A stretch of 64,000 nucleotides of DNA from Tubulanus polymorphus (taxonomy: Eukaryota; Animalia; Nemertea): positions 24,796,345 to 24,860,344 of the forward strand of contig NC_134028.1 in NCBI RefSeq assembly GCF_964204645.1, written 5' to 3'. A program made the position numbers and the translations under genes. Each line of letters begins with the position of its first letter. The stretch's first letter is position 1. The notes beneath the pieces are model-generated. The model worked only from the letters and a program-made list of their open reading frames with translations, ran no database searches and was not told where the DNA came from. Below, piece by piece: positions 1-26,300 of the stretch.

Positions 1-3000
1 GTACTGCCAATCTTCGGTGAATGCGCGCTGATCAGCAGGATTCTGACTTCTCATAGTAGCTCTTACCACTCTATCGAGATTGTCGTATTCGAATGTTTCG
101 ATGGTTTTTCTCTCGCTGATGAGATCCTTCCTGCTCAGCATATTACCGTCTGTATTATAACCATACTGCCAGTGACGTAAGGTCCGCTTCGATTTGTCCG
201 TACTACGTATATGGGTCACGTGATTCATCAAGTCGTATTGATACTCGGTTAGTATCCCATTCCCAGACGTTTCCTTCGTTACCTGGCCAAACTGATCGTA
301 GTTCAAACCAGTCCAGTAGTTATCAGTAAGAGGACCACTACAAGCCGACTTGCGCACGGCAATCAAATATCCAGTTGGCGAATAGCAGTAATGCACAGTC
401 TTTCCACCAGGGTATATTTGTTGTGTAATTTGGCTCTGCCTGTTATATGATGTTTTCACTTCCAATACCTTAGTTCCAATTGTTGTATTGACGATAAATT
501 CTCTGCCAACTGAATCATAATTATACTCCCTCGTGAAACCACCAGGCGCGGTTACCTTTGCCACCTTGCCCTTACCACGGGGCTTTGTATCATAAAACCA
601 AAGCGTATCGCCTTCTGGTTCATTCCTCTTGACGATCCTTCCGAGTTCATCAAAGTATTCTAGTTTCTCTTGCCCTTTAGCGTCGGTTTGTCGAACCAGT
701 TCGCCAAACGCATTGTATCCATATTTCCATGTTCCCATATCAGGGTCAGTCATTTGTATTTTATTTCCAACCTTGTCATAAATGAATTCGTCAGCATTAC
801 CAGCAGGATCTGTTATCTTTTTTAAATTGCCCACAGCATCGTACTGATAATTAAGTTCACCGCCATTAGCATCAATAACCTTAATCATTCTATCCATTAC
901 ATCTCGCTGAGTAGTTGTTTTATGTCCTTTTCCATCGAACGATTCCGTTATCAATCCTTTAAACACTTTTCTCGTCACGTGTCTCAAATTGCTGTCCATC
1001 GGCCGATCGACCTTCACTTCGCGACCAATGACGTCGTAAGTGTACTGCACCCAGGATCGTCTACAAGTTGATTCACAAGGTAGTGACTGTTTTGCTACAA
1101 GTCCCAGTCCACTGTATGTGATATCTTCATAAATATCTTTACCGTTAAAATCTTTCGTGTGAATTCGAATCACTCGATCGAGTTTGTCGTAGATTCTGCT
1201 TTCAGATGGTTTTCCAGGTTCAGATGTGGAAACCTTGTAACCAGCATGCGGTATGGTATTATCCCACTGATAGGACCAATTGATTTGCGACCCGTCTGGC
1301 CTCCTCTCTGAAAGCTTCCTTCCGAAATCGTCGTAGGTCCAACTCGTTTTTAAACCATTAGCACCGACCATAGCGATTGTGTTGCCTAATCTATCGTACT
1401 GATACGTTTCCGTGTGACCGAGGCTATTTGTAGCGCTCACTTTACGGACACCATTTGAATCATAGGCTGTCGTGACTGAACGAATCTGTTTCGCTTGATT
1501 ACCGTGAGTGAATTTCGGAGTACGAGTTTGCTTTATCATGTTACCGAACTTATCGTAAATATTGTTACTTACTAATGCCAGATTATCATCAGGTTCAATG
1601 ACCATTGATGCGAGGGTTCTCTTAGTGACGTCATACGACCGAATCGTTTGCCGAACGGATATGTTTTCGTGTTGATCTGTATGTGTAACCTTCAGACAAA
1701 GAACCTGCCCGATAAACCAATTCTGCTTATTATTCAAAAACGATCTATTAGTTTCCTGTTTGAACGTGACTCCACCTCCACTAATCGTTCTCGTGATGTT
1801 TCGTGCATTTCCGTATTCATCGATGTTCTTAAACTCTTCCGTTTCCACTTTTATCGGGGCTCCATCGATTTCATTGACCTTCTGTATGATCTTATCCAGA
1901 ACGATCTGAATGTTGTTGGCTCCGGCCTGTGGATTTTGACGATGGCTGAATGTTTGACTTTTTTCCGACACGACTTTACCATTTACGTTAATAGTGCTCT
2001 TCGCCACCGTTCGAGTTAACGGGTAAATAAGGTTGTAAACATCTCTTCGAAGTTCGTTACTTTGAAGCGATTTCGCCTCTACCCACTCGTAGCCCAAGAT
2101 ACCACGACCTTTCATGTTAATGAAGAGTGGTCCATAAGTAAAATCAGTAACATTTTGTCCGCCAATACCATTATCATTAGCGATGCGCTTCACCAGTTGT
2201 TGGGCGTTGTTAAACTGTGCATTTGGATAAGTATTTACTTTCTTTATTGATTTATAAACGGTTTTATCCGCTTGTGTCGTGTACGTGATCGCATCTTTGT
2301 TGCCCAAACTGTCCGTGACACTAGTTAAAAGTTTTACTTCATTCTTATTCAAAGATACGTAAACGCCAGCGTCCACAAATCCGACAATATCCGTTAACCC
2401 ATCCCCATTCACATCGACTAGCATTCTCGGATTTGCTGATACTCGCCAACCACCAGTAGAAGCACCAAACTGCCTCACCCAACGTGAAGGAGTTCCGAAA
2501 GAGCTACCTGTATTCAAGGATATGTATGCGCCGGCGTTTGCGAATCCTACGACATCTGGGAGTCCATCACCGTTCATATCACTCAGATATCGGGGATGAG
2601 ACTCGACCCTCCAACCACCTGCTGTAAAACCGTAATCTTTGATCCATAATTTTGCGGTAAGAAATGATTTACCAGTTCCGATGGATACATAAACTCCAAA
2701 ATTAGCAAAACCAACTATGTCGGCGAGACCATCTCCATTTATATCTGTTACATGTCTCGGATCTGATTTGACTCTCCAGCCGCCTGCGGTGTAACCAAAT
2801 TGCCTCAGCCACACTGATCCAGAAGCGAAGCTACGTCCAGTATTCAGTCCTACGTATACACCGGCATTAGCAAAACCAACAATGTCTGGAAGTCCATCTC
2901 CGTTCACATCTTCGACGAATCTCGGGTGTCTTTCAACTCTCCATCCCCCTCCAGAGTATGAGAAATGAGCGTTCAACCACAGAGCCGGGGTTTTAAATGA

Positions 3001-4497
3001 ACTACCCGTATTCAAAGACACGTAAACCCCACCCGAAGCAAAGCCCACCACATCAATTAATCCGTCACCATTAACATCTTTCATGAATCGGGGATGCATA
3101 TTGATTCTCCAATCTTGGCTATAACCGAAATCGGCCACCCATATGTTTGGGGGAGCAAAGCTTTCTCCAGCCGTATTAAGGGCTACGTAAACCCCGGCAT
3201 TCGCAAAACCTACAATATCGGGAAGGTTATCACCATTTACATCTACTACGAATCTCAGGTGAGATGCCACTGCCCATCCCCCTACACTTCGGCCGAATGA
3301 ACGAACCCAGTATTTTCCAGGGCTAAATTTGTTGTTGCCCGTGTTTAGGGCTACATAAACACCAGCGTTTGCGAAAACGACGATATCAGCCAGACCATCC
3401 CCGTTCACGTCTACGACATGTCGAGGATGATTACCAGTTGACCAGCCTCCACTCGAAGCACCAAACGCATTTATCCAATAGCCCGGTGTTACGGTTTGTT
3501 TTACATCATTTAACCCCTTATATGACATGTCTACTGGTTTTAAGCAATTTCCGCTTCCACTACAAACCTTAACCTTATTCAAAACGCTCATTTTACTCTC
3601 GCCAGACGAACTGTATGTAATGTATATTTTTCGATGCAAATTTCCACCGACTAATGTCTCAATCGTCTTCAATCTCATGCTAATCTTACTCAGAATGTGT
3701 CCGTTGAAATATTCACTTCTCACATCTGGCCGATTTTCGTATCCGAATCGCACCTCCATTCCACCCGAACTGATCTTTGATAAATACGGGTAATCTTTGC
3801 CGGTCAAGTAAGTGAAGTGGATTGAAGCGTCGTTGTAGGCGCTCATTGATGTAACCAGCCATTCGTATGTTCCAGGTTGTGAAACGCCTTTCATCGAGGA
3901 ATCGCCAGTTTTGCCGTAATACGTCTCGCGGTCAGTCGTCTCCACCTTGAAGTAATCGGGTCCAGAAGCTTTCGTTCCGTATGATGTGATTCTACGTAAA
4001 CTGTCAACTTCTGTATAATAGGTGGCGCCATTTGACCCATACGACCCGGATGCGCTAACCAAACGAGCGCCATCTAGACAAAACCGATCAGAGGAAGTAT
4101 ACGACAATCCTAACACGCGGCCATCTTGGGCAACAGTTTGGCGGCATCTGAAGACGAGAAAACACATCTTTATGATTATAAAATTCTTTGAAATACTTTC
4201 AAATCATTCATAAGACCTCGACACATTTCCTCACCTAACTATTGAGCCGGGAACATCGATGTTCCAGCCCAAACCGACAGCGCCATTTCCGCGACTACTG
4301 TGGTATGAAAGAACTAGTTCCGGCATCAGACCATAGCCGAACCCATCCGGCAGCGGTATGGGTATTTTGTAAGCCACATTACCTTGTTGGACGTTTAGTT
4401 GTGTAGGAACATTGCCTACGACCTCTGCAGCGTCACCCGTCGATGGTAAGCTGGTGACGAGGAGGCCAAAAAATGTGTAAAACACACTTCGCAACAT
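1..4497 (-). CDS. Secreted Rhs/YD-repeat toxin-like protein, copy 1; 3' part lies beyond the window edge. Exons 4497-4235 and 4147-<1
   Basis: Colinear with copy 2 at a constant 8291-bp offset. ATG at 4497, GTGAG donor at 4234, TTCAG acceptor before 4147. No stop-terminated ORF is listed for exon 2, which fits a frame open to the edge. Encodes signal peptide, SpvB-like domain, 7 PVL-type repeats (~3490-2341) and YD repeats. Confidence 0.88.
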
Positions 4498-4640
4498 CTC
4501 ACCTACAATGAAAATTAACAGAGCTGAATATTTGTTGACACTGATTTAGAACAGTTCACTTTATAAAGATATATAAATACGTATTAATATTCGCTCTCTA
4601 TTTATCTATCGATAATTTAGTGGTGCAGCCCATTTAATTC

Positions 4641-4745
4641 CTGGGCCCTGTTTCACAAAAAGGTTTATCTCTTAAATCGATTTAATTAATTCAGTTTATC
4701 TTAAATCGATTTAGGCCTTAATCCTTTTTGTGAAACTGGGCCCAG
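4641..4745. mobile_element. Short palindromic MITE-like element (GGGCCC/GGTCCAGTT-ended family)
   Basis: Inverted ends ctgggccctgtttcacaaaaagg ... cctttttgtgaaactgggcccag. Similar hairpin elements at ~19200-19332, ~32124-32310, ~36835-36925 and ~54384-54497. Confidence 0.6.
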
Positions 4746-6737: not shown

Positions 6738-9700
6738 CTATTGGACACGTTTCGAGCGCTTCTGGTCAACGATCAGAGCGGCTGATGCCGGACCGTCTAA
6801 AAGAGCAGTATACGTCATCGCAGCCGCTGGTAACATACCTGGAACATTGAATACATCGCGGGCAAACGGTAACGACACCTGGTCTAATCTAACCTGGAAA
6901 ACATCGTGCATGCCGGCTACAGCGTTTATACCCGGAACACGATTGGCAACAACACTTAATCTTCCACCCTCATTAAACCAACCTGACGGATCGAGAGTTT
7001 CCTCTGCCGTTCCGAAATTATTTGCACCCTTAACAGGCATGTCCCAAGGTTCTTTCGTAACTGCTTTACCACCCGGCTTCCAAGTGACGTCGTACTTGAC
7101 AATCTTATTATACGCGTATCTCATCGACGACGTGACCAAACCGAGAACCAGGCCATCTTTAAACCGACCACCCGTTAATTCGCTAGCCGCCCCGGCCCCG
7201 ACCCCTTGGGCTGCGACGCGTTCTAGATTCCAAGAATTTCCAAAATAGCCCCCGACACCTCCAGTTATAGCACCACCAAGGGCACCCTGCAGGCCTCCTT
7301 TTACTGACCCAGTTGCTATAGTACCCCCGACAAATCCAGCCGTCGCACCAGCTATCGCACCAGTTGCAACAGCAGCCGATGCACCAGTTAAACCGGCCGA
7401 AACGGCGAGACCGGCTGCCCAAGGAGTAGCTGCCCCAAACGTTACTGCAGAGGCCACCACGGCAATGATTACTCTTGGTGTGAAGACCTTCTTGAAGAAT
7501 CTGCCAATTTTCTTGAAGAAAAATCCCGATGGATCGTTGTATCGTAGAGGGTTATTTTTAGCGTACGAGTAACGGTTAAAACTCTGCGTATCGTACGGAT
7601 CCTGTACGTGTGGATCAGGACTCAAGAATCGCCCGACCTCCGGGTCGTAGACACGACCGTTCATATGGATTAATTGCAGCTCATCGATTCGTTCCTGTCC
7701 AGTAAAATCTCGTTTAATACCAGAGAACGAAGCGGCTGAATAGGAAACAGAAGAACGCTCGAAAGCCCAATCTTTGAAGGGTTGAGGTTTTCCAAACACG
7801 TTATAACGTTTTCTCAATAGTACCTGCCCGCTCTCACCAGTAATCGTATCAACTGATCCAACATGGTCGAGATGAACGTATCTCATATTTGTGTTGGAAT
7901 TTATAACCGTCTCGATTCCCACTAGTTTATTATTGGCATAGACAAAATACTTGTGTTCATCGCCCTGGTCGTTTTCAGTAACTTCGTACACCTTTCCGAG
8001 GTAGTATGTCTTCTTTTCATTTTCGGTATGGTGGTCAAATGTACTTTTAACGTATCGACTACGATCCGGATCGTATTTGAAATTGACGACCTGGCTACTC
8101 GTTTCAAACTTTTCTGGCATGTTGAAAGAAGTCCATCCAACTGTCTGCATATTCTTGCGTATTACGTTCCCATTGTCGTCGTAAGCGTAAGAATTATGCC
8201 CAGCTTGGACGAGAGCCCTGGGCTTCTGCGAATGGTACACGTGATGTGGGCCGCCCATTCCGCTGAATCTACGAATATTACCGATTGCATCGTACTGCCA
8301 ATCTTCGGTGAATGCGCGCTGATCAGCAGGATTCTGACTTCTCATAGTAGCTCTTACCACTCTATCGAGATTGTCGTATTCGAATGTTTCGATGGTTTTT
8401 CTCTCGCTGATGAGATCCTTCCTGCTCAGCATATTACCGTCTGTATTATAACCATACTGCCAGTGACGTAAGGTCCGCTTCGATTTGTCCGTACTACGTA
8501 TATGGGTCACGTGATTCATCAAGTCGTATTGATACTCGGTTAGTATCCCATTCCCAGAGGTTTCCTTCGTTACCTGGCCAAACTGATCGTAGTTCAAACC
8601 AGTCCAGTAGTTATCAGTAAGAGGACCACTACAAGCCGACTTGCGCACGGCAATCAAATATCCAGTTGGCGAATAGCAGTAATGCACAGTCTTTCCACCA
8701 GGGTACGTTTGTTGTGTAATTTGGCTCTGCCTGTTATACGATGTTTTCACTTCCAATACCTTACTTCCAATTGTTGTATTGACGATAAATTCTCTGCCAA
8801 CTGAATCATAATTATACTCCCTCGTGAAACCACCAGGCGCGGTTACCTTTGCCACCTTGCCCTTACCACGAGGCTTTGTATCATAAAACCAAAGCGTATC
8901 ACCTTCTGGTTCATTCCTTTTGACGATCCTTCCGAGTTCATCAAAGTATTCTAGTTTCTCTTGCCCTTTAGCGTCGGTTTGTCGAACCAGTTCACCAAAC
9001 GCATTGTATCCATATTTCCATGTTCCCATATCAGGGTCAGTCATTTGTATTTTATTTCCAACCTTGTCATAAATGAATTCGTCAGCATTACCCGCAGGAT
9101 CTGTTATCTTTTTTAAATTGCCCACAGCATCGTACTGATAATTAAGTTCACCGCCATTAGCATCAATAACCTTAATCATTCTATCCATTACATCTCGCTG
9201 AGTAGTTGTTTTATGTCCTTTTCCATCGAACGATTCCGTTATCAATCCTTTAAACACTTTTCTCGTCACGTGTCTCAAATTGCTGTCCATCGGCCGATCG
9301 ACCTTCACTTCGCGACCAATGACGTCATAAGTGTACTGCACCCAGGATGGCCTACAAGTTGATTTATAAGGCAACGACTGTTTTGCTACATGTCCCAGTC
9401 CGCTATAGGTGATATCTTCATAAACATCTTTACCGTTAAAATCTTTCGTGTGAATTCGAATCACTCGATCGAGTTTGTCGTAGATTCTTCTTCCAGATGG
9501 TTTTCCAGGTTCAGATGTGGAAACCTTGTAACCAGCATGCGGTATGGTATTATCCCACTGATAGGACCAATTGATTTGCGACCCATCTGGCCTCCTCTCT
9601 GAAAGCTTCCTTCCGAAATCGTCGTAGGTCCAACTCGTTTTTAAACCATTAGCACCGACCATAGCGATTGTGTTGCCTAATCTATCGTACTGATACGTTT

Positions 9701-12700
9701 CCGTGTGACCGAGGCTATTTGTAGTGCTCACTTTACGGACACCATTTGAATCATAGGCTGTCGTGACTGAACGAATCTGTTTCGCTTGATTACCGTGAGT
9801 GAATTTCGGAGTACGAGTTTGCTTTATCATGTTACCGAACTTATCGTAAATATTGTTGGTTACTAATGCCAGATTATCATCAGGTTCAATGACCATTGAT
9901 GCGATGGTTCTCTTAGTGACGTCATACGACCGCATCGTTTGTCGTACGGCTTTCTTGCCGTGTTGATCTGTATGCGTAACCTTCAGACAAAGAACCTGCC
10001 CGATAAACCACTTCTGCTTATTATTCAAAAACGATCTATTAGTTTCCTGTTTGAACGTGACTCCGCCTCCACTAATCGTTCTCGTGATGTCTCGTGCATT
10101 TCCGTATTCATCGATGTTCTTAAACTCTTCCGTTTCCACTTTTATCGGGGTTCCATCGATTTCATTGACCTTCTGTATGATCTTATCAAGAACGATCTGA
10201 ATGTTGTTGGCTCCGGCCTGTGGATTTTGACGATGGCTGAATGTTTGACTTTTTTCCGACACGACTTTACCATTTACGTTAATAGTGCTCTTCGCCACCG
10301 TTCGAGTTAACGGGTAAATAAGGTTGTAAACATCTCTTCGAACTTCGTTACTTTGAGGCAATTTCGCCTCTACCCACTCGTAGCCCAAGATACCACGACC
10401 TTTCATGTTAATGAAGAGTGGTCCATAAGTAAAATCAGTAACATTTTGTCCGCCAATACCATTATCATTATCGATGCGCTTCACCAGTTGTTGGGCGTTG
10501 TTAAACTGTGCATTTGGATAAGTATTTACTTTCTTTGTAGATTTATAGACGGTTTTATCCGCTTGTGTCGTGTACGTGATCGTATCTTTGTTGCCTAAAC
10601 TGTCCGTGACACCGGTTAAAACTTTTACTTCATTCTTATTCAAAGATATGTAAACGCCAGAGTTCGCAAATCCGACAATATCCGTTAACCCATCCCCATT
10701 CACATCGACTAGCATTCTCGGATGTGCTGATACTCGCCAACCACCAGTAGAAGCACCATACTGACTCACCCAATAGGAAGGCGTTCCGAAAGAGCTACCT
10801 GTATTCAAGGATATGTATGCGCCAGCGTTTGCGAATCCTACGACATCTGGGAGTCCATCACCGTTCATATCACTCAGATATCGGGGATGAGACTCGACCC
10901 TCCAACCACCTGCTGAATAACCGTAATCTTTGACCCATAATTTTGCGGTAAGAAATGATTTACCAGTTCCGATAGATACATAAACTCCAGCATTAGCAAA
11001 ACCAACTATGTCGGCGAGACCATCTCCATTTATATCAGTTACATATCTCGGATGAGATCGGACTCCCCAGCCGCCTGCAGTGTAACCAAATTGCCTCAGC
11101 CACAGCGATCCAGAAGCGAAGCTACGTCCAGTATTCAGTCCTACGTATACACCGGCATTAGCAAAACCAACAATGTCTGGAAGTCCATCTCCGTTCACAT
11201 CTTCGACGAATCTAGGGTGTCTTTCAACTCTCCATCCCCCTCCAGAGTATGAGAACTGGCCGTTCAACCACAGAGCCGGGGTTTTAAATGAACTACCCGT
11301 ATTCAAAGACACGTAAACCCCACCCGAACCAAAGCCCACCACATCAATTAATCCGTCACCATTAACATCTTTCATGAATCGGGGATGCATATTGATTCTC
11401 CAACCTTGGCTATAACCGAAATCGGCCACCCATAATTTTGGGGAAGCAAAGCTTTCTCCAGCCGTATTAAGGGCTACGTAAACCCCGGCATTCGCAAAAC
11501 CTACAATATCGGGAAGGTTATCACCATTTACATCTACTACGAATCTCGGGTGAGATGCTACCCTCCATCCCCCTGCACTTTGGCCGAATGAACGAACCCA
11601 GTATTTTCCAGGGCTAAATTTGTTGTTGCCCGTGTTTAGGGCTACATAAACACCAGCGTTTGCGAAACCGACTATATCAGCCAGACCATCCCCGTTCACG
11701 TCTACGACATGTCGAGGATGATTACCAGTTGACCAGCCTCCACTCGAAGCACCAAACGCATTTATCCAATAGCCCGGTGTCGTGGTTTGTTTTACATCAT
11801 TTAACCCTTTATATGACATTTCTACTGGTTTTAAGCAATTTCCGCTTCCACTACAAACCTTAACCTTATTCAAAACGCTCATTTTACTCTCGCCAGACGA
11901 ACTGTATGTAATGTATATTTTTCGGTGTAAATTTCCACCGACTAATGTCTCAATCGTCTTCAATCTCATGCTAATTTTTCTCAGAATGTGTCCGTTGAAA
12001 TATTCACTTCTCACATCTGGCCGATTTTCGTATCCGAATCGCACCTCCATTCCACCCGAACTGATCTTTGATAAATACGGGTAATCTTTGCCGGTCAAGT
12101 AAGTGAAGTGGATTGAAGCGTCGTTGTAGGCGCTCATTGATGTAACCAGCCATTCGTATGTTCCAGGTTGTGAAACGCCTTTCATCGAGGAATCGCCAGT
12201 TTTGCCGTAATACGTTTCGCGGTCAGTCGTCTCCACCTTGAAATAATCGGGTCCAGAAGCTTTCGTTCCGTATGATGTGATTCTACGTAAACTGTCAACT
12301 TCTGTATAATAGGTGGCGCCATTTGACCCATACGACCCGGATGCGCTAACCAAACGAGCGCCATCTAGACAAAACCGATCAGAGGAAGTATACGACACTC
12401 CTAACACGCGGCCATCTTGGGCAACAGTTTGGCGGCATCTGAAGACGAGAAAACACATCTTTATGATTATAAAATTCTCTTAAATACTTTCAAATCATTC
12501 ATAAGACCTCGACACTTTTCCTCACCTTACTATTGAGCCGGGAACATCGATGTTCCAGCCCAAACCGACAGCGCCATTTCCGCGACTACTGTCGTACGAA
12601 AGAACTAGTTCCGGCATCAGACCATAGCCGAACCCATCCGGCAGCGGTATGGGTATTTTGTAAGCCGCATTACCTTGTTGGACGTTTAGTTGTGTAGGAA

Positions 12701-12788
12701 CATTGCCTACGACCTCTGCAGCGTCACCCGTCGATGGTAAGCTGGTGACGACGAGGCCAAAAAATGTGTAAAACACACTTCGCAGCAT
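6738..12788 (-). CDS. Secreted Rhs/YD-repeat (TcB-TcC-like) toxin-like protein with PVL-type lectin propeller, copy 2. Exons 12788-12526 and 12438-6738; ~1987 aa
   Basis: 1906-aa ORF plus an 88-aa upstream exon, joined in frame by an 87-nt GT-AG intron (AG|GTGAG ... TTCAG|A) to give GWNIDVPGSIVR-CRQTVAQDG. Contains seven GGW..HPR..DVNGDG..DIVGFANAGVYV repeats, many YD repeats, and the Rhs core FTGQE..MNGRVYDP..GRFLSPDP..NRYSY..NNPLRYNDPSG. An AATAAA lies on the minus strand at ~6164-6169. Confidence 0.92.
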
Positions 12789-13760
12789 TTCACCTAAAAT
12801 TGAAAATGAAACCAGCTGAATATTTGTTGACACTGAATTACGTAGATCGCTTCAGTTCATGTAGATATATACATACACATACACAGATATCAACAATTCG
12901 TTATCTTTTATCATGTATCACTTCACGATAATTTAGTAATACATTTCATTTCCTGGTCCGATAAAGATAATATCCCCAGATATCAAGTCTCTGAATGTGT
13001 CTATAAGTGAAATAAACATTGAAAAAATCGAATTCGTGTGTAAGCCTCGAAAACGCTACTATCATAGTAAAGTGTCAAATTGGATAATTCTTGAAGATAT
13101 CAAAGTGGTTTAGTATCCGGGATTTATGAGTTTGCACATAGAAATATGTGCACATTGAAAATTGGTTAAGTTTCTATGTATATGAAATACATTAGCCGTA
13201 ATACAAAAGCTACCGATGCTACATTTTGCGACATATTTCAATAGAAACATTAATCATAGTAATTAGATGTGTTGTGCCCCTTTCACTGTGGATACAATGT
13301 TCAACATCGCTTTCCACTGGGACGTTAATAGAAAAGCGAAAACATTTCATTAACTCTTAATATAAATTCGAACCCAACCTGCATTCTATAGATAATCGAT
13401 AATGAATTATATACCATAAAGTTGGACATAGGAAAACTTCTCAAACCAAAAATGAACTTCAGTGTAAACAAGTTTATTTTTTATTTTGGTATTCTATATT
13501 AGTTTGGTGTAAGGATTCTGCTTTTTCCGAAACTGATAATACACATTTCAGTCCTAGCGGTTTTCTACTAATGAATATGAAGGATTGATGAAGTCCAACT
13601 GTTGAAAAATACAATTGACGCAATCTAACTCGATACCGTGTAATGTCGAATTTGTTCATAACATACCTTGCACTGCTCCTAGTCAACCAGTGAAAACTGA
13701 AGAATGGTGTTGTCGCTTTCAGTACTGTTAAGTGTTGTGACAAGAGCGTCACAAGAGCTT

Positions 13761-13909
13761 GCTCATATCCTAGCAGATTTGGAAAACCCAAAGTATGAAT
13801 GGACTGATATGACGTCTGCGGGTGTATGGACTTTTGCTCATATCCTAGCAGATTTGGAAAATCCAAAGCATGAATGGATTGATATGACGTCAGCGGGTGT
13901 ATGGACTTT
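13761..13909 (+). repeat. 75-bp direct tandem duplication (2 copies) inside a 99-codon ORF (13704-14003)
   Basis: gctcatatcctagcagatttggaaaa...gtatggacttt starts at 13761 and again at 13836. Confidence 0.9.
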
Positions 13910-14663
13910 CCCCATTTATAAATACCCCGGTATAGTGTCTCAATCGTCTTTTCAACTCGCGCCGGAAAACCCAATTAACTGTTCTATGTATTTTAGGGAC
14001 TGACGAAACTGTTACTCGAAAACAAGTTCTTAATAGAAATAATGTGAACAATAACAAGCCAGAAAAAGTGTCCCGGGATAGCTCTGTGTAATCAACCTAT
14101 TTATTTTATTTGTAGCTTATCAATGAGTGTCATTCATTTGTGGAATTGAACTCAGCCTGCGCGCATTTCTTCGAAAAACGGAAAGACCTTGAGCGTCATG
14201 AATTTCCAGACAAAAAATATTTCAGCGAAAAATAATTTTTGAAGAGAAGACAAACAAGATCAATGAAAGTACAACGAGTAAACCAAAAACATTTTTGATT
14301 GAACGGCTAAACAATGCATTCGTGTATAGATCAAAGATGAAAAATTCATGGAGACATTAAGATACAAACCCACTATTTACAAATTAAAAGAATTCTAAAA
14401 TCGAGAATTTATTTATTGAAACAATCTAAAATATAAGAACACGACGTTTCCATCTCACCCTAGAGATCATCGTCAGGTGTCAGTGTGGTTATCGTACTAC
14501 ATAGAGACATGTTTCTAATTCGCTCTGCTGATTATTTCTAACTCGTATTTGAAATAATAGCATTTCATCGTGGTAGATATTGGCATGTCTCTACCTATTC
14601 CGGAATTATATTCTGGCGCATTCATTTCGATACATAGTCAGGAAAAGAACCCGATTGAAACGA

Positions 14664-14972
14664 CCGGGATGGGTTCGGATAGGTTTCGGCATGGTCTAAT
14701 GCCGAAATTAGTTCTCTCGTCGCGGATAGCAGTCGCGGGAATGGCGCTGTCAGTTTGAGCTGGAACATCGATGTGCCCAGCTCAATAGTAATGCGAGGCA
14801 AAATACCGAGGTGAAGTAAATGATTCAATAGAAGAAAAGAAAGTAGTGAATAACGATGTGAATCCGTGTATTCAGATGCCGTCAAATTGTCCAAGATGGC
14901 CGCGTGTTAGGCGTGTCGCATAATTCCTCTGATCAGTTTAGTTTTAGAGGCGCTTGTTTGGTTAGCGTGTCC
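14664..14972 (+). pseudogene. Inverted, degenerate fragment of the Rhs toxin gene (end of exon 1, intron, start of exon 2)
   Basis: Reads GLMPKLVLS / DSSRGNGAVSLSWNIDVPSSIV, then an intron-like spacer with the donor mutated to GC, then ttcag|atgccgtcaa..caagatggccgcgtgttaggcgtgtcg (CRQ..QDGRVLGVS). Frameshifts are present. Confidence 0.85.
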
Positions 14973-15462
14973 CCCACGCGGCGTGTCATACAATTATTTC
15001 GAAAAGGAAGAAAAAATATATGTTTTTGAAAACAAATTTAATAATAAAATCAACATTGCACGATATCGATGAAGTAATGAAAAATTGTTTAAAATACAAT
15101 GATATCTACATGCAGCAGACTCAGCCTTACCCCGAAGAACTACTCAAATCGCTAGGTTAGGAAGACTTTACATAAATATATTCAATCGCAACCAGGATTT
15201 CGAGGCAAGCGAGGCCGGTCCATCAGGTTCGCAAGTTGGTTATAATCGCTCTATGGACCCTCAATATCAATCCGAGTTCATTGCGATTTGCCTAATGTCG
15301 TACACAGAAGAGACCAGTAACTTAGAGGTAAATTTTGCCCTTCTACGCACGCCATCTAGCAGAGGCTCCTAACTTCCTTGTGGAATATTTACTATCAATG
15401 CACTATACCGAGTAAGGGTAGAGTCTACTGTATGTAATTGTATGTAACATATTTGGATCTTT

Positions 15463-18400
15463 TCACGTTCTCTTCTGTAGCAATCGTTTACACCTGGAGA
15501 ATTTAACGCAACGATTTTTATGTAGAACGAGGCCGGGCGCGCATTCACATCCGGGTACACACGGGCGATTGCAGTTCCGGTCAGCTGTCGGGTTTTCGCA
15601 GGTGCGCAGACACGCGGACATACACTTCTCATATTTCGAACCGTAGATACATTTCGGCGCTAAAATCGAAAAGAATGAAGAATATTTTTACACATTTTTC
15701 AAGTCGCTATTTTTCAAAAAGAAATATTACAAATTCCACGCGCTAGAACTACCAACACACGACTTTTCGACGTTTCACACTATGTCAGTTTCAAATGAAC
15801 TGGGTAGAGAAGTAGGAATCTGTACAAGAGGTCATCATTCATTGAATTTAGAAAAGAGACGTTTCAACACCAAGTAGAGGAAACTTCTTTGGAGTACGCG
15901 TAGTCAACACATGGAAGTAGACAGCTCCATCAACGAATGCATTTAAGAACAGCGACATAACACCGTAAGTTCTATTGCTGCCACTATTGACATTTCAGGT
16001 CAAATGACACAAATGCTTTGTCGAAAAGTCGTGTCTTGATAATGTTCAGTGCTTTTTACACGCAATACTTTACTATTATTAATAGATAACTAATAATCAT
16101 TTTATTAAATGAAAAGATTCTTACTTCCGCAGAAATGTGGTGTTTTCCATTCAGCGACGATATTAAAACGAGCACAGGCTTTCGTATAAGCGATCAACGC
16201 TTCACAGCTACACTGCATGTTACTTGGACAATCACATACATCAGTTACACACGCCCTGTAAAGATAATGCAATTCTTTTTTGAGTAAAGTGATTTCAGAA
16301 GGTTAGAAATGCGTCCATAAAAAAAGAGGTGGGACCAGAGACAGCAGCTCTCGGTTCTCGGGACTTAAAGCATTGAAACTTATCCAAACGCTATGTTCAA
16401 ATTTAACCGACAATCTGTGGAATCAGGCACAAATTTGCGGTCAGTAACTCCCTCTTCGCGAAGCTTTCGTTATTTTGAGATCAATGAAACACACTACCGG
16501 GTTGTCTAGTGTACTACGAGTAAAGTCAGTTATATAGATAAATAAACTATTTCTTAGTTTCTACAGGCCCCTCCAGGTCTAATTTACTGTATTTTGTATT
16601 ATGCTTTGTACACTATGCGGTAAATTATATTTGAAAAATAAAGTGTTCATTCATTCATGGACAAATTCTTTGTGGAAAATACAAAATGTATACGTACTTG
16701 TAATAAGGACGGACGGGTAAGACTTCTCGGCATTTGGCGAACGCCGGCGTGAACAAAAAACTGCATTCCTGATGAGCTAGCATTTTATGAGAGAAGACGC
16801 TTGGATTCAAACACGGCGAAGGTTTATTCGATCTGTTCGGTTTCAGACATTTCCCTCCGACTCGCCACTGATCGCCGAATTCCTTCGAATCGTGTACCCG
16901 TTTGCCGTTTTTACCAATGAAATCGTCGCTAGGATCGCCGTTGTAATTGCCGCACAAGCCGCACAGTTTCGTTTTCAACTTCGCGGGCACGGTCACCTCC
17001 AGATAACTGTCTCCGTCCCAGACGATTTTGATGCCGTTCGAAGCCCGAACTACGATCGACATATCCTCGATCGTGATATTAAAGCCGTCGTGCTCGTACG
17101 GTAAATCCACTGTTTTACGCTCGACGCGCACGAGCATTCTCTGCAACAGGAAAATCCGCGTCTTATTCAACTGAACGGCGGCCATCTTGGTCCAAGCGTA
17201 GTTTTCGTAAAGTCGCACGTGGTTTCGTACTCGTATGTTGAAAGCGGCCTCGTCCGAGCAGAGCTTCGTCAAAGTGTATTTACAATTTCCTTGGAAGTCG
17301 AACATTTTCCCGTCGTAGGTTCGATAATGCGGGTCTCCAAATACGGTACACACAGATTCACCTGGGGAAAAGACACAACATTTTCGTTTGAGATTCAGAC
17401 ATAAATTGCTTTTACGCATGAACAGAAGAACACGTTTTTTTGGTACATGCGATGTATTCTCTCGGATTGGGACCTCACGAGGCACGTACGCCATGCCGTA
17501 AGATAAACGGGTGAATTTCGCGAGCAAACTTACGGCTTGGAGTAATCAAATGATTTACTCAAAGCTTACGGGTTCAGTGGAACCATACGGGCAACCCATA
17601 AATCTCACGGCGGCGGGCCCAAAGCACCTCGTAACAGAATCGCTCATTGCAGACGTTTGTATTGATGATAAGTAGTATTCCTTTAAGAGCTTCGTATTTG
17701 CGGAATTTGCGGTATACTTACGTTCGACACACCTCGGGCAGCATTCGCCGGCCGGAGTTTTCAGTTCGAAATTCTGAAGGCATACGATTTGTTTCTTTTC
17801 ACACGGGACGACTCTGCATACATTCTCACCGTTAACGCATTCGCACTGCGAACAGCCGTGTCGCCATGTTTGACCATGCTGCAAATAAGATGTTTCAGAA
17901 TGAAATAATATTTCGTTTCTCAAAGAACAATTAATCGTCGAATGATCCCGACAATGTAGATTATAAGAACAATTTTGAAGCTATGGCTATATCAATTTGT
18001 TAGCTAACTGCATCACAGGCCAGTTGCTCAAAAGCTGATAAACTAAATAGCAGACAAAGTACTGCATTTTGACCATATAGTATTCATCTTTGATAATACA
18101 AAGATAAATTGATGACTGATTTATAAGAAGGTTAATTACCGCGTATGTGATATCTTCCATTTTACACATTTTCCCATGTTTACATTTCGGGCAACATTCT
18201 CCTGGTGGGTTGATTATATCTTCTAAACTACAGTCAAGAGGACCACATTTCTCCACATCACACACCACCATACTATTCTGTATTGAGATAGACATTGCTA
18301 TTATCAAACCTTTAACATGTCGTACACAAATACATGAATAACGTAATGTGGCATTTGTTTTAGATTCAGCGCCGAATTCATGAATACATACCCTACAAAA

Positions 18401-18857
18401 ACATCTTATACACGGATTATCAGCAACCATCGGCACATCTATAGAACCTTCAACGTCACACTTCGCAAGGGTTCCTACAGAATTGAAGATGAATACTTGT
18501 CAAAACAGACAATTCCATTATGGATAAACCATAGTGAGTAAAACCATTAGAAACTGTCAGAAAATTGAAATGCGGGTTTCGCTTAGTAACCCTGAATAAT
18601 AAGATTAATATCACAGTCAACCAGTCATGAATAAGTGTAGTAGAAACAGTTCTACCTTCCAAACATATCGATTTTGAAATCTTTACCAAATCGTTTACAA
18701 ACAATTTCGAAACTTTTTACGGCAAAAACTAAAATTCGTAGATCGCTTCAAGAACTGACATGAAAAGTTATTTACCTGCTAATACGGCGACTGCTTCGTC
18801 GATACAACCCGAAAACACAACGATTGAAAATACGATAGCTCTAAAAATCCAATCCAT
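15463..18857 (-). CDS. BMPER: BMP-binding endothelial regulator / Crossveinless-2-like. Exons 18857-18776, 18474-18392, 18277-18140, 17878-17722, 17361-16698, 16255-16125, 15659-15463; ~483 aa
   Basis: Signal peptide MDWIFRAIVFSIVVFSGC; Cv-2-like N-terminus GTLAKCDVEGS..DNPCIRCFC; VWC repeats ending CCPKC and CCPRC; VWD with CTVFGDPHY (GDPH autocleavage); C8 and TIL domains. All introns are GT-AG and the summed exon length keeps the frame. Confidence 0.88.
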
Positions 18858-20371
18858 CTCCCATTTTGCCGTTACTGTGATATTCTAATCGTGTTGAGCG
18901 TATTCTCGAGCAGAAATAAATTGACCCGTTGCCTTTCACAATCACTGCATAAATGTGAATTTAAATAGACGAGCAGGCCGCTCTTTATAGTCTCGTGAAA
19001 TGACATCTATAATATGAGGCGTGATCACCAGTCTTGCTGGGCACGTAGATTATCATTCACTGTGTTAATTATCCAGCGAATGGCGTTTGTTGACACCTAA
19101 ATTAGACACAAACAATGTTAATCCCTTTACGTGTCACTTTGCAAGCGCCAGATTCGCTCCTGTCTAAAAATTCCTGTCCAATACAACGCTCCAGTTTAAG
19201 GTCCAGCTGTATCAGTCGTACTCAAGTCCATAAGTTATCTTAAATTTTAAGACTATATAGCCTTAGTCAGTTTGGGCCACATAAAAGTGGTCTGAATAAC
19301 GTTAATAACGCTAAGACTGTGCAACTGGCCCATGGGCATCGGCGCTTTCCTACGTGGAGGCACCACGGTTATGCAATTCAAACTGTACTTGAACTGTGCC
19401 GTGAACTCATTTTAACTTGTAATATTTGAGCTGTGCGATAACTTCTGGTATTCACGAACTTTTATTTGTACAATAAAATTAATGTTCATGGTGTAAATTA
19501 CTTCCAGGAATGCTAATCAAGTTAAGGGTAGTGTAATTGGCACCAAATAATTTCATGGGTAATTTACTATCTAATTCAGAAGAAGATTTATTGGGTAAAG
19601 CTCATAAAAGGAATGAGAAATTTCTATTTTGATTTATTTCAGTAAATGAGGTAGTTTGACGACGATCAATTGAAAAGTGACCCGGCTCGCGCGCCAGTTT
19701 ATTTTACCGTACTGTACCGCCATCTATATCGCGTCGGGTCCGGTATCTTTCGGAGCCCGCCAGTCCGTACGGTGTCGCCATCTACATTAATGGAGGAGAG
19801 CTGTCAGAATTTTGTAAATAAAAACACACGTCATTCTTCATGTAAATTATCGGTGTTTTCACGCTTATCGCGAGTCGATGCGGCGCTGTTTATCGATAAC
19901 AAGTCAGTTTAGATCTTAGATACAGTTAATTTTTTTGCTGTAGTCTTGTTGTCAGAGGCTAAATAGAACAATTTGGCCTCGAGCCCGAGATTCGAACAAA
20001 AAAAAACGAAACAGAAAAAAAATCCATTGTGTAGTTCGTTGATCACTGTTCAATTTGAAAATATCTGTAATTTTAAATCGTTTAGTAGGCTTAATCTTGA
20101 AATAATCTTTGCAAGGTTGCGTCCCATTATAATTTTTTCGTTATAAGCTTTTGTAACTTAATATTATATTGCCATTAAATTTATTAATTGACAATTGTTC
20201 TAAATTTTGAGATATCAAAAATTAGATTATTTTCCGTCTATCAATTTTGATGTTTAAGAAAATGATGGCCGTATGAATCATTGTTTTTATCTTCGAAGGT
20301 TAATTCCTGGTGAGAATATGATTTGACGAATGATACATCGCATCAGTTCAATGTAGTCGTAACGGAGTATA

Positions 20372-23300
20372 ATGGATGCGAGTGCAGGTGAGCGCGCTGT
20401 TAAACTATTTCAGCAAGCTCAGTACGTCGATGCATGCGCCATCTATTCCAAATGTCTGGAACGAATTGTGGAGTCGTCGAATCAAGATGATCACGGAAAA
20501 CGAGTTCAACTGTTGCTCAATCGATCGGCTTGTCACGTTAAATTGGTAAGTAGCAGGTCGACTAGTACACGGGTCAAACTCGTACCCGGTCAACTGGTGC
20601 ACAGGTCAAACTCGTACCTGGGTCAACTCATACCCGGTCAACTGGTACACGGGTCAAACTGGTACCTGGGTCAACTCATACCCGGTCAACTGGTACACTG
20701 GTCAAATCGGTACCTGGGTCAACTCATACTCGGTCAACTGGTACACTGGTCAAATTGGTACCTGGGTCAACTCATACCCGGTCAACTGGTACACAGGTCA
20801 AACTGGTACCTGGGTCAACTCATACCCGGTCAACTGGTACACATGTCAAACTGGTACCTGGGTCAACTCATACCCGGTCAACTGGTACACAGGTCAAACT
20901 GGTACCTGGGTCAACTCATACCCGGTCAACTGGTACACAGGTCAAACTGGTACCTGGGTCAACTCATACCCGGTCAACTGGTACCCGGTCAAACTCGGAA
21001 GACTCTCATAAGCCTAATGCACCTGATATGACTTTCAAGATGATTTTGATGATATTCAGAACCAGGAACGCCTTACCTCTCATTGAGTCACTGGTACTTG
21101 CCTTTTCAGGGATATAAATCACACTGTTTTTGATATGTTTTGTTGCCCCTCTTTTGCGTGATAGTCTCTCTAGTTACAAGCTGGATCCATTAGGCTTTCA
21201 TAACTTGAGATAATTATTACTATTTATTTTTATTTCAGAAAAACTATGAAGCCGCCATAGAAGATTATGAACAAGGTACGCTGTGAATGGAATGCCACAA
21301 TTAACTCAAGCTCTCAGTCTTCTTATAGCTTTTAGACCTTACATCAAATAATGAAAAGGCAAAAACTGATATCAATTATTCAAAACTCTTTCAACCTGTT
21401 TTTCTGTTAGAAAAAGTATTTGATGTGAACAAACTTGACCTTAGAACAAACTGCTTCATTGTCAATGCTCATTGGTCAATTTTGGACAATATGGTTGACT
21501 ATGTAACAGCTCCATTGCCCACTATGAGATAACTCGTATAAGCAACTGGGGGCAGTGAATATGTTAATTAAGCATTGGATTGTGGAACAGAATGAAAGAT
21601 ATTTTTAGAACCCCGGCCTTCAGTTTCCAAACTTTATTTTACAGTTTTGTTAATCGATGAGTTGAACGCGAAAGCGTTTTTAAAGAAGATAAAAGCTCTG
21701 TCGTCAATTGGCAAATTTGTAAACGCGTTCGAAACTGCGAAAACATGGCTCGAAAAGGATGAACAGGTACTATCATTTGATTTGAGGCACGATATAAAGA
21801 TAGAGTCCAAAAGCTCTTGATCGTTATGAACTTTTGTATGTATGATTTTTAGAATGTACAAGCTAAGAAAGAAGTTGATCGACTGGAAATAGTTGTAAAA
21901 GCTCTACTCGACCAGGTAAGCTCATATTTAATGTGACCTGTCGGTTTAGTTTTTGAAGGTGTCTACCCCTTAAGCCTGAGAGTCTTAACCCTTGTTGTGA
22001 TTAGCGAATATTTTTTGTGGCCCCAGCAGTGTTTTGATGTGAGTCTATACATCGGATGAAGTTTAGTTAAACTTAGATTTCATTTTCAAATGTGGAACTC
22101 TTTTAAGTCTTGTGTGTTGTACATCTATATATCCTAGTTTTACAAATGTTTTTTAATCACAAATATGGCCACTTCTAGCGTGCTTGTGGGTTGAATTTTA
22201 GACAATTTCTCATTGTAGCAGTTAGATGAAGATGATGATGACGTTATCATTATTGACAATGGAATAACAGTCGACTGGGAAAAGGAGGAAAATGTTGAGA
22301 GCACCCCGTCGATTGAGAAAACCAAACCAGATACGTGTAGTAATTGTGATATCACTGATGATAATGAGGAGGGTAAGTCAAGGGTGGATCCGAGGAGCGG
22401 GTGCAGGGGATGTGGCCCCCCTCCTAAAAATGTCAAGTTGCCCTGAAATTGTAGGCCTACAGGAAATAAAAAATACTAAATTGATACCTAAGAAAATTTA
22501 AATTCATAAGCTTGTTCTCTGTATATCCGATGATGAGTTAATGTTTGCGGTGAATTAATTATTTCGAAGATGAATTATTGCGAGTAACGTATAATTTTTC
22601 TAGAGAATGATTCGATGAAGATTGATTTAGCTATCGATGCATGTTTGGAACCTGCGAGCGGCGGTGCAAATGAAAATGACGATGACGTCGATGTCGAAGA
22701 TGAAAAAGGTGATGACGATGATGGAGAATTGGAAGTTGATATTGCGGATAATAACGACAATTCTCAGCAGAGCGGTGACGATAAAAATGATGGCGGTCGA
22801 ACATGGAGGTTCCGTGAACCGCCGCGAGGCCTTACCAGCGAAGAATTCCAGAAATGTCCCAGGTGTGTTCTGTAATATTCTGTATCCAGGACCCGCTTAA
22901 GTTGAATTCTACTCTACAAGATTACAGTTGAACCTCCTTGAAACGATTCTGTTTAAGATGAAACCCATTTACTACGATGGTTTCCAGCAGAGATATTTAT
23001 ATTAACAATTTCCCTTTTGACTACAAGAATTGTCTACATTTTCGCTCTTTCAACCCTAGCATGCTGCGATATTTCAATAGAGATTTAAAAAAGTCATTCC
23101 TACTTATATCAATATACTGTGATGCAATGTATTAGCAAAACCCATTACCGATCTATACACCGCACTGTGGTGTAGATGCACTGAAAGGATTAATGTTTAA
23201 TGATCATTATTCTGCCAGGTTTATGTCGAGTGGAATTTGTCGATTCGGCGATAAATGTACGGAAGCTCATTGCGACGGAGAACTGCTTGAGTGGCGCAAA

Positions 23301-26300
23301 CGTTTCGATGACCGTTACGAGCAGCTGCAGCGAGAGAGGGACGAGGAGAATCGTGGAGCCGGCCTCTCGTACGCTGAACAGCTACTAGAAAAATGGATGA
23401 ACGCCGATAATCCAGAAACAATCGTAAGTGTCAACATTGAGATGGAGGAGTGGAGGCTGAGGCATGTATGATAGTGGCTACCACAGTTCAGACTGTACCC
23501 AGTTCCACAGTTCAGACTGTACCCAGTTCCACAGTTCAGACTGTACCCAGTGTCACATTTCTGATTGCACCCAGATTGCAGTTGGTTGAATAAATAGATT
23601 TTTGCTTTCACATTTCAGATGACGAGTAACCCTCCTGGTATCAAATTCTACTGCAATTCAGATTCATCAATAACTATGGCAACTAAAAGGTGTAATCACG
23701 CTTGGCTTTTCACGTTGACTAGCAAGGTAGGTAGCTTTAGCACGTGCTTCATTCATGATTGGGAATACGTACGTACACCTACATGCGCCATCAATTTCCA
23801 CGTCGAAAAAGAAAGAACTAACTTTTTAAATCCGCTGAAAAATAATTTGCTAAGAGCTTACTGAAATGTCGTAAGTTTTGATTAAAATTTGAGTCTATTT
23901 CTATCCGTTGAAAGCTGTATTTAGCTCGTGTGATTCTATTGGACGAATCAAAACGCCATTTCAACATAACGTCCGTCACGATCGGCCCGAAGAAAAATCA
24001 AAAATCGCAAAAACTCGACGAGAGTTGTCAAGAATGGTTGAATCCTGTCGATCAGAATAACTTGTCAAAAAACGAAACTGTCTACAGAGTAAAGGTCAGT
24101 TTTATTTTCTCTCACTATGATTTTCTATTCCCCTAAATGCTAACTGCACAATTGAGTCTAAGCTCATTTTGGTTCTATAGTCAATCTAACAATATGACAA
24201 GACTAAGCTCATTTTGGTTCTATAGTCAATCTAACAAATTAACACTGGTCTAAGCTAATTTTGGTTCTATAGTCAATCTAACAAATTAACACTGGTCTAA
24301 GCTTATTTTGGTTCTATAGTCAATCTAACAAATTAAGACTGGTCTAAGCTTATTTTGGTTCTATAGTCAATCTAACAAATTAAGACTGGGGTAAGCTTAT
24401 TTTGGTTCTATAGTCAATCTAACAAATTAAGACTGGTCTAAGCTTATTTTGGTTCTATAGTCAATCTAACAAATTAAGACTGGTCTAAGCTTATTTTGGT
24501 TCTATAGTCAATCTAACAAATTAAGACTGGGGTAAGCTCATTTTGGTTCTACGGCTAATCCAACAACTACAGAGCAGTTTTATGATTTAGTACCACTCCC
24601 CCTAAAGTTCACTGTTATGATAACATTCGACTATTTTCTATGATTTCAGATTCTATTTCGTACGGATATATTCGGAACGTTTCGTCAAACAGTCGTGTTT
24701 GATTTCGGTGTCGAACCGGTGATGTGTCAGCAGCTGTGCGTCGACTCCAGTCCGGTAATCGACGTCGATAAACTACAAGCTGAGTTAACCCTGAGTGAAA
24801 GCGGCCGCTGGGAAGTATCGACTATACCCATCGTTGAATTCCTCCCAAAGTAAGCGTTTTCCTTATCTGACTTTCAAAGTATTTTATCGAATTTACTGTA
24901 CATCCATCATACTTTTTTGTGTACTGTGGACTGTGGATGGAATTTGTTGAAATTTTATGACTATTGGATCATGTTGAGAAGAGTTATGTATTTTTGAGGG
25001 TCCACCTTTCAACATGTCTGACTGGTGGCCGCATTTGTTCTTAAAGCTATCTAGGCAAACATCCTTCTGTTCAAGATACAGACTGAACCAGCGAATGGAT
25101 TCTTAAATAAATTCACGACTTCTTATGAAATCTACCGGGTATGTGAAATAATTTGTGGTTAAAATTGTGATATCTGATTTCGTCGTAGGCCGCGTTGTAA
25201 CCGTCGTGATGCCGAATTGTTGGAGAAATATCCGGTTCCGTCTGCCGCACAGATTGCTACTAGCCATTGTTTACAGGACGGCGTCACGTCGAAGGAAAAC
25301 TACCGCGATCGAATGCACAGTTTGTTGTACATTGAAGAAATGGCGCAATATTCAAATGTATCCAAGTACGTAATACACTGATACTGATTAGTGAAAAATT
25401 GTGAAGAATGGAATGTCTGCTTAGAAATGTGAGAATCTGTGAAATATGATGAAAATGTGTGAACAGTTCAAGAAAAGTGTCTGTCAAGATATTTTGATTG
25501 CCGCTTATGTCATATACTGCAGAGCTTTGAATTCATTTTAATCTGTCCAAGTAGTAACCAATAACTGCTTATATTATTGATGTGAAACATTTGTAAAAGA
25601 TTATGAAAAATGTGAAAAATCCTGATATTTCATAGTAGAAAATTGTGAAAAAGTAAGGATGTTATTCAGAGTTCATCAATTTGATCGATGTGAATTTTAA
25701 GCATTATCTATTCATAGGGAGTAGTGGCTAGCATCCAATTATCAGAAAAATCTTAAGCTTAAAAGCTTAAGAAAAGTTTCAATGAAGTGGTAATTGTTTT
25801 TGAACATTCCAGAGTTCATCGATCTGATCCTTTTATGCTCGTACACTTCAGATATAACATCAAAACCTGGTTGGATTTAACGACACGATTCATGTTGATG
25901 CCTTCGACGTATTCCACGGCTAAATACGCTCAAAACGACGAGCTGTTCGCGCACACGAACCTAGCGACGGAGATCTCCGAGGATACCGCTCACGGGCGGC
26001 TCATTTTACAGAACGTCAATCGCGTTCTCATCGCGGCCGTCGATAAAAATAACAAGTCCGAAAACCAAACTCCCGAAAAGGTCAGTGGTTTATCACTTAA
26101 TTCCTCCCTGAATCAGTGCACCGTCCCGAATCAGACCTAGATTCACCCCTGAGATTATTCATGCTATGATTAAAATTCCGCTGTACACCATTTTCACTAC
26201 TGACCCTGTGAAAATAACTCATGAATTCTCCATTCATTCAGGACGTATCCTAAAATTTGCCTAAAATTCAGAATTCCGGTACTACTCATTACTAGCCTCA

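Follow-up and report, generated by a model that had tools for sequence, protein, structure and literature searches.

How might an RHS toxin shell, carried as a single chain in an animal genome, find the cells on which it acts? The question is raised by a gene of the nemertean Tubulanus polymorphus that lies within a 64,000-nucleotide (nt) stretch of contig NC_134028.1 (positions 24,796,345 to 24,860,344; hereafter the window, to which all coordinates refer). The gene is represented chiefly by a 1906-codon open reading frame (ORF; P0001) on the minus strand at 12458-6738, and encodes a TcB-type shell with a built-in seven-bladed propeller of the PVL/AAL2 lectin family and a C-terminal cargo of 261 amino acids. 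In our estimate there is an even chance that its product is a domesticated, TcA-free, glycan-guided antibacterial toxin whose specificity has changed from that of PVL; both binding and toxicity are predictions only.

A PVL-type propeller in a TcB-type shell

The propeller (10632..11783, minus strand; residues 226-609 of the ORF) comprises exactly seven repeats of 55 or 56 residues, as an earlier note on this DNA had claimed. Their Ca-loop motifs are spaced 56, 55, 56, 55, 55 and 55 residues apart, and the 30-residue ungapped repeat cores share a mean pairwise identity of 0.74, compared with 0.077 (maximum 0.127) in 1000 shuffles. Pfam assigns these repeats just to FG-GAP. The more specific PVL/AAL2 type put forward in the same note nonetheless holds: only four PDB sequences, two of PVL and one each of AAL2 and PAL, were matched at E<=0.001 (E 8e-113 to 5e-86), and an AlphaFold model of residues 8-740 (54-row alignment; mean predicted local distance difference test, pLDDT, 92.3; predicted template modelling score, pTM, 0.89) superposes on PVL with Z 48.6 and a root-mean-square deviation (rmsd) of 1.5 A over 363 residues at 39% identity. 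The model places 28 strands across the seven repeats, and its best match among propellers outside the PVL family is UmbA4 (Z 20.0); a single-sequence fold of the propeller gave pLDDT 37 and was not used. As modelled, the repeats form a PVL/AAL2-family propeller, a statement of fold family in which N-acetylglucosamine (GlcNAc) lectin activity is unproven.

With PVL, AAL2 and PAL (PropLec7B) the window propeller shares the size and number of blades, a pocket of Gly-Trp and His, an equivalent of PVL Tyr140 and DxDxDG-type Ca loops between strands 1 and 2. These loops are present in all seven blades here, compared with two or three in the three lectins, and the window propeller differs further in its extra outer-strand Trp and in being embedded in a toxin shell. 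Unlike PVL, it closes at another strand, and about 33 N-terminal PVL residues are unaligned.

Pfam, profile comparisons and structural overlay all identify the surrounding SpvB, propeller and midN scaffold as TcB-type. Coding exon 1 (12526..12788, minus strand) supplies the start of SpvB (Pfam SpvB E 5e-9) and a likely signal peptide, a hydrophobic stretch at residues 4-15 that was called from hydropathy rather than by a dedicated predictor; it matches the start of P0003, a database protein of 1987 residues, encoded on a 27.4-Mb contig, that is the product of this gene. The encoded protein is probably secreted. The remainder of the SpvB/TcB N-terminal segment (11784..12438, minus strand) matches the N-termini of YenB and TcdB1 in profiles and overlays on TcB. 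A TcdB_toxin_midN region (10341..10721, minus strand; PF12256 E 1.6e-8, residues 580-706) overlaps the last blade, and an RHS/YD shell with the RHS core at its end occupies 7524..10631 (minus strand; PF05593 E 1e-44; TIGR03696; TcdB2-TccC3 profile match 9e-60).

When the whole model (model positions 1-733) is laid over TcB residues 81-894 (Z 18.6, rmsd 3.7 A, 618 residues, 17% identity), the propeller falls in the place of the TcB propeller, in agreement with the earlier proposal that it sits where TcB docks on TcA. The Tc propeller at this position is a pseudo-six-fold gatekeeper (PMC11435725); no such TcA-binding propeller is present here, its place being taken by seven regular, symmetric blades of PVL type. 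No TcA was found in the window, which holds no further long ORF, and none is annotated within 12 kb of the three plasmid loci of bacterial relatives that were inspected (3/3). The protein otherwise resembles the Tc B+C cocoons TcdB2-TccC3 and YenB-YenC2 in its SpvB-propeller-midN order, RHS core autoprotease and cargo of about 27 kDa; it differs from them in being one chain, in its likely signal peptide and in its shorter shell.

The autoprotease motif consists of R1602, D1615 and D1642 (7524..7655, minus strand), with cleavage predicted directly after it. R1602 precedes D1615 by 13 residues, the spacing of the autoprotease residues R2103 and D2116 in BiTLP; the same residue set occurs in Tc toxins and is absent from mammalian teneurins (PMC13018210). 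One chain with an intact motif fits the earlier description of a single-chain toxin, and the cargo is, in all likelihood, cleaved off behind the RHS core.

The orientation of the propeller follows from its topology in the predicted model, where the chain enters before the outer strand and exits after the third strand, so that both termini lie on the Ca-loop face. The sugar pockets of AAL2 lie on the opposite face (PMC4483166). Because the pockets and the points of attachment are thus on opposite sides, the sugar face very probably points away from the shell.

A changed sugar pocket

AAL2 contacts GlcNAc through N104, G110, G111, W112, H117 and G136-E137 (PMC4483166). The N104 position, which reads O3/O4 of the sugar, is Asn or Asp in all six working sites, and Ala mutants lost resin binding (PMC4483166). 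Y140 adds N-acetylneuraminic acid (Neu5Ac) binding to PVL, whose binding data are given in PMC4456360; the earlier note erred in crediting AAL2 with sialic acid binding, which belongs to PVL alone (PMC4483166).

Against this background the window propeller is a mixture. The acetyl-pocket Gly-Trp and His (AAL2 G111, W112, H117) are kept in 7/7 blades, as is a Tyr at the position of PVL Tyr140. In blades 1-7 the N104 position is occupied by A, S, D, Q, Q, D and Q (Asn/Asp 2/7), and the G136 position in the 2-3 loop is Gly in blade 3 and Ala in the other six. Repeat 3 (11295..11444, minus strand) is the sole blade with a complete AAL2-type site (Asp, Gly-Trp, His, Gly, Tyr); this site is absent from the seven full-length orthologs of the animal clade described below and from a tandem paralog, which has no complete site at all. 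The earlier picture of a multivalent PVL-like GlcNAc receptor, which its author would have abandoned had the PVL contact residues not been conserved, is thus half undercut, since Gly-Trp, His and Tyr stand in every blade and the Asn/Asp and pocket Gly do not.

A wider count points the same way. A profile built from the seven repeats and scanned over 152 proteins gave 1,150 repeat matches. Removal of the duplicate P0003, of P0125-P0152 and of repeats gapped at a scored position left 1,000; all of these proteins were found by likeness to the query, and both repeats and proteins are related, so that the counts are not independent events. Complete sites account for 409/619 repeats from 63 bacterial proteins without a shell, for 7/302 from 47 bacterial proteins with one and for 2/79 from 13 animal-clade proteins. 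By these sequences, the shell-type repeats make up a PVL subfamily in which the pocket is changed and a GlcNAc lectin function is at most putative.

The tandem paralog, 8,291 bases away (1..4497, minus strand; exon 1 4497-4235, intron 4234-4148, propeller 3492-2341), is 96.9% identical in nucleotides and runs off the window; an inverted, frameshifted relic of exon 1, intron and exon 2 start (14676..14967, plus strand; 78% nucleotide identity) shows that the locus has been duplicated at least twice. Amino acid differences between gene and paralog within the propeller fall at 20/140 codons of the sugar-face loops, 0/63 of the Ca loops and 10/181 of the remainder (sugar face versus rest of propeller, Fisher p 6e-4); outside it they number 3/218 in SpvB, 18/291 in the midN region and 10/489 in RHS. 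The ratio of nonsynonymous to synonymous differences per site (pN/pS) is 1.03 on the sugar face and 0.14-0.17 in SpvB and RHS. Five propeller bases of the window are different in a contig from sequencing run X2, changing two residues, both on the sugar face. This pattern, from two gene copies, would suit a surface that meets a ligand and faces shifting demands, and it suits relaxed constraint equally.

Taking pocket and variation together, we lean modestly towards a propeller that binds some glycan, probably an N-acetylated one. The best-surviving alternative, although an unlikely one, is that lectin function has been lost and that the propeller is a Ca-stiffened lid or a protein-binding surface, with targeting through a protein receptor or partner in the way the TcB propeller binds TcA. 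Such a role would suit the parallel loss of two pocket positions in animal and bacterial shell repeats (p 2e-13 at the protein level for bacterial shell versus non-shell proteins, with relatedness ignored) and the invariance of the Ca loops between paralogs, as well as the kinship of the TcB and PVL propellers, both VCBS (PMC8023676), the former of which binds protein (PMC11435725). It sits poorly with the retention of Trp and His together in 66/79 animal-clade repeats, like the 535/619 of non-shell proteins and unlike the 142/302 of bacterial shell proteins, and with the concentration of paralog variation on the sugar face.

Multivalent binding of terminal GlcNAc in the manner of PVL is similarly improbable, and a shade less probable again is the full reading of the propeller as a canonical GlcNAc/Neu5Ac lectin through which the toxin would be directed to chitin, peptidoglycan or surfaces capped with GlcNAc. 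The close overlay on PVL, the Trp, His and Tyr140 equivalents in every blade and the one complete site speak for it; in Tachylectin-2, moreover, a Lys replaces the Asn (PMC4483166), so that Gln or Ser might serve. Against it, AAL2 reads a free O4 at non-reducing ends (PMC4483166), which the internal residues of chitin and peptidoglycan do not have. Its Asn/Asp is essential as described above, whereas it is found here in two blades and complete sites are almost confined to non-shell proteins.

Several other proteins with related propellers came to light. The large bacterial BNR/sortilin-repeat proteins P0004-P0047 carry many PVL-type repeats with the complete AAL2-type site mostly kept, and are likely to be true GlcNAc binders. 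The CHAP-domain Leucobacter proteins P0090, P0098, P0107 and P0117 bear a PVL-type propeller of the same divergent, Trp-bearing kind and offer a simpler system for finding the ligand. Shell-type PVL propellers occur in Vibrio vulnificus SpvB-RHS proteins (P0112-P0115); in P0064 (Rhodoferax) and similar proteins SpvB, a PVL-type propeller and midN are followed by a Gp38-like Pfam match that replaces the RHS core. An Agarilytica plasmid (L025:11440-13563) encodes a 707-residue protein that matches part of the SpvB region and the propeller (48% identity) and is too short for an RHS shell.

The cargo and its probable target

The cargo (6738..7523, minus strand) has a cationic amphipathic start (net charge +5, hydrophobic moment 1.98), Gly/Ala-rich hydrophobic helices and a C-terminal domain that holds a conserved His-Asp; 11 GxxxG motifs occur in it. 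It has 38 database matches and none on plasmids, and members of the animal clade are 52-67% identical to one another. Among 19 metagenomic cargo loci, the 17 that cover the C-terminal domain were examined (two pairs are near-duplicates), and in 16/17 an ORF of 91-145 residues lies directly behind the cargo, 11 of these with a lipobox match. One metagenomic locus (L001) carries two orphan cassettes of RHS core and cargo (1-1577 and 7713-8875), each followed by a small lipoprotein-like ORF.

A lipoprotein immunity guard is an established pattern for toxins that act from the periplasm. From its position, the small lipoprotein behind the bacterial cargo is likely an immunity protein, and a lipoprotein guard in a toxin-immunity layout suggests a cargo toxin that acts from the periplasm. 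We judge it somewhat probable that the cargo acts on membranes or the cell envelope. For comparison, another hydrophobic RHS cargo needs a secretion signal in order to permeabilise E. coli (PMC13018210).

The second L001 lipoprotein (8573-8875; P0169) is 100 residues long, belongs to no Pfam family and has homologues behind the cargo in 12/19 loci, making up an unnamed putative immunity family. The L001 cassettes flank a toprim/XerC element beside type II secretion-like genes, and the genes around a Janthinobacterium plasmid locus (L027) are similar.

Both propeller and cargo behave as exchangeable modules. The closest cargo relatives bear generic FG-GAP propellers, and in a 49-row shell tree the propeller type changes five times and the cargo six times; among the 113 nearest new shell relatives, a PVL-type propeller was found in 0/51 Ca-loop-bearing proteins. 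In the animal genes the combination is fixed.

The reading that we favour may then be set out as follows. A spliced animal gene, likely of bacterial origin, would encode a probably secreted, single-chain capsule resembling TcB plus TcC. This capsule would cleave itself behind the RHS core and keep the hydrophobic cargo inside; its outward propeller face would dock on a target-cell surface glycan with a specificity changed from that of PVL, and a membrane- or envelope-active cargo would then be released, probably against bacteria, without a TcA syringe. That bacteria rather than eukaryotes are the target we hold to be the better supported side of the question, with moderate confidence.

Beyond the altered pocket positions and the isolated complete site described above, several points weigh against this account. 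The Gly-Trp and outer-strand Trp motifs belong to the wider VCBS superfamily, including PVL and TcB (PMC8023676), so that conservation of Gly-Trp is no proof of sugar binding, and a pN/pS near 1 suits relaxed constraint as well as diversifying selection. The cargo's peak 19-residue Kyte-Doolittle mean is just 1.79, no Pfam or NCBIfam family matches it and its Atlas matches (0.82-0.89) fall below 0.9 and serve as leads only; with no family match, its activity is read from neighbours and hydropathy. Unlike a polymorphic toxin, it is conserved across animals (cnidarians, an annelid and a brachiopod). A TcA may lie elsewhere in the host genome.

That same conservation would suit a glycan-guided toxin or adhesive directed against eukaryotes, be they prey, predators, fungi or parasites, or else a secreted or mucus component that is no longer toxic, like the repurposed teneurins and SGS1. 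Two further points would suit such a role: a tblastn search of the 64-kb window with one of the immunity-like lipoproteins gave no match, and SGS1, a shell acquired horizontally whose membrane helices are hidden, acts in an animal context (PMC9935623). We hold this to be the least likely alternative of all. Bacterial homologues of the cargo, orphan cassettes included, are paired with putative immunity lipoproteins that would imply bacterial targets ancestrally, and the protease residues absent from mammalian teneurins are intact here.

The favoured reading, a TcA-free antibacterial toxin, has partial precedents. TcdB/TcaC-type polymorphic toxins likewise combine a signal peptide, SpvB, an integrin-like propeller, RHS and a C-terminal toxin, and their description lists them for bacteria and Euryarchaeota only (PMC3482391), whereas the window gene is an intron-bearing animal gene. 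Its animal cargo is fixed and no adjacent immunity gene was seen, unlike in those toxins; the bacterial relatives do fit the polymorphic pattern in their variable cargo and trailing small ORFs. Mosquito SGS1 and the teneurins resemble it as animal RHS/YD shells gained from bacteria, SGS1 also bearing lectin-like domains on its surface (PMC9935623). The Pfam families of the mosquito SGS second propeller, carbohydrate-binding module, lectin carbohydrate-recognition domain and Tox-SGS tail are absent from P0001 and the cargo, with a weak structural match only.

Umbrella toxins are multi-protein particles with a separate six-bladed lectin subunit and no RHS shell. Those of Streptomyces (UmbA4) resemble the present case in that a propeller lectin with divergent blades, few of whose sites are used, picks the bacterial target; targets are chosen with only 2/6 sites engaged (PMC13274773). 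Tc toxins, for their part, bind glycans via TcA (PMC11435725). The TcdB/TcaC architecture class, animal RHS shells, glycan binding by TcA and the steering of umbrella toxins by propeller lectins are therefore already known. Searches of the open-access literature turned up neither a shell-embedded PVL-type propeller nor its altered pocket nor this animal clade, although the combination of a PVL-like propeller and RHS may already be drawn in figure S1 of PMC8023676, which gives domain contexts including RHS.

An animal gene and what it may mean

The host of the gene is an animal: its neighbours are multi-exon genes of animal type and its introns are spliced in contigs of two studies. An 87-nt GT..AG intron of phase 2 (12439..12525, minus strand) is spliced out in contigs from runs X1 and X2, a contig from X3 being unspliced across it, and an 873-nt GT..AG intron in the 5'-untranslated region (12794..13666, minus strand; ends taken from the sequence) is skipped by the X1 contig. 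Bacterial contamination, or a bacterial source of the window, is ruled out by the same observations.

Four neighbours were recognised from exon pieces: a BMPER-like VWD/VWC gene (15369-18436, minus), a HELZ-like SF1 helicase (20363-34173, plus), a release-factor-like gene (40778-41071, minus) and a threonine-aldolase-like gene (51783-53706, plus). The gene itself (6741-12437) has a GC content of 0.43 at third codon positions; in three short stretches of neighbouring exons, which form a small sample, the value is 0.57-0.69. Short high-copy repeats at 4640-4745 and 14358-14480, upstream of both gene copies, have many loose contig ends in three runs and are probably remnants of mobile elements; a 75-bp direct duplication lies upstream of the gene at 13759-13909, and a tandem array at 20550-21030 directly follows the first exon of the helicase-like gene.

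Full-length relatives, 45-49% identical, are present in the sea anemones Actinostola and Exaiptasia, the annelid Owenia and the brachiopod Lingula. These, the window gene and six more records, called animal by clade position alone, form one clade (approximate likelihood-ratio support, SH-aLRT, 100) nested inside bacterial SpvB-VCBS-RHS proteins, of which the closest named ones come mostly from marine Proteobacteria; the trees were quick ones, of 49 of 59 rows and of 41 chosen rows, rooted at the midpoint. As placed in these trees, the gene was likely gained from bacteria horizontally. The point at which P0011, P0039 and Exaiptasia P0023 leave the family N-terminus, the same Arg-Cys as in the window's intron read-through, hints at an intron shared by all four genes.

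The Owenia protein (P0010) is 65% identical to that of Actinostola (P0008) over about 1,970 residues, and 43% identical to that of Lingula. A history of the animal genes that follows the species tree is rejected by approximately unbiased (AU) tests (p 1e-80 for Owenia plus Lingula, p 2.5e-7 when the window gene is included). The Owenia-Actinostola likeness may reflect a transfer from one animal to another, or ancient paralogy followed by losses. The relevant passages of a review list PropLec7B among animals for Cnidaria, Rotifera, Annelida and Brachiopoda alone and give no toxin context (PMC11186620); these hosts overlap with those of the shell clade.

A bolder version joins all of these elements, and as a whole it is tentative, falling clearly short of an even chance. 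It would hold that the bacterial RHS shell was domesticated in animals separately, beside the teneurins and mosquito SGS, with the weapon kept as a one-chain, lectin-guided antibacterial toxin; that a PVL-type propeller replaced the whole targeting role of TcA and reads a new glycan class; that the gene passed between sea anemones and worms after it gained its intron; and that the sugar face diversifies between tandem copies like an immune receptor.

For the family, a 'PropLec7B' call in the databases for these animals is not to be taken as GlcNAc binding, because the shell-type pocket differs. The literature consulted leaves unsettled how RHS shells without TcA find their targets; with a lectin fold already solved at the position where TcB docks, the question can be put to a simple binding assay of a domain of 385 residues. 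A bacterial-type toxin, probably secreted, protease-intact and probably intron-bearing, is shared by cnidarians, an annelid and a brachiopod; its cargo is fixed and falls into no known family, and Exaiptasia makes a role in defence or symbiosis testable.

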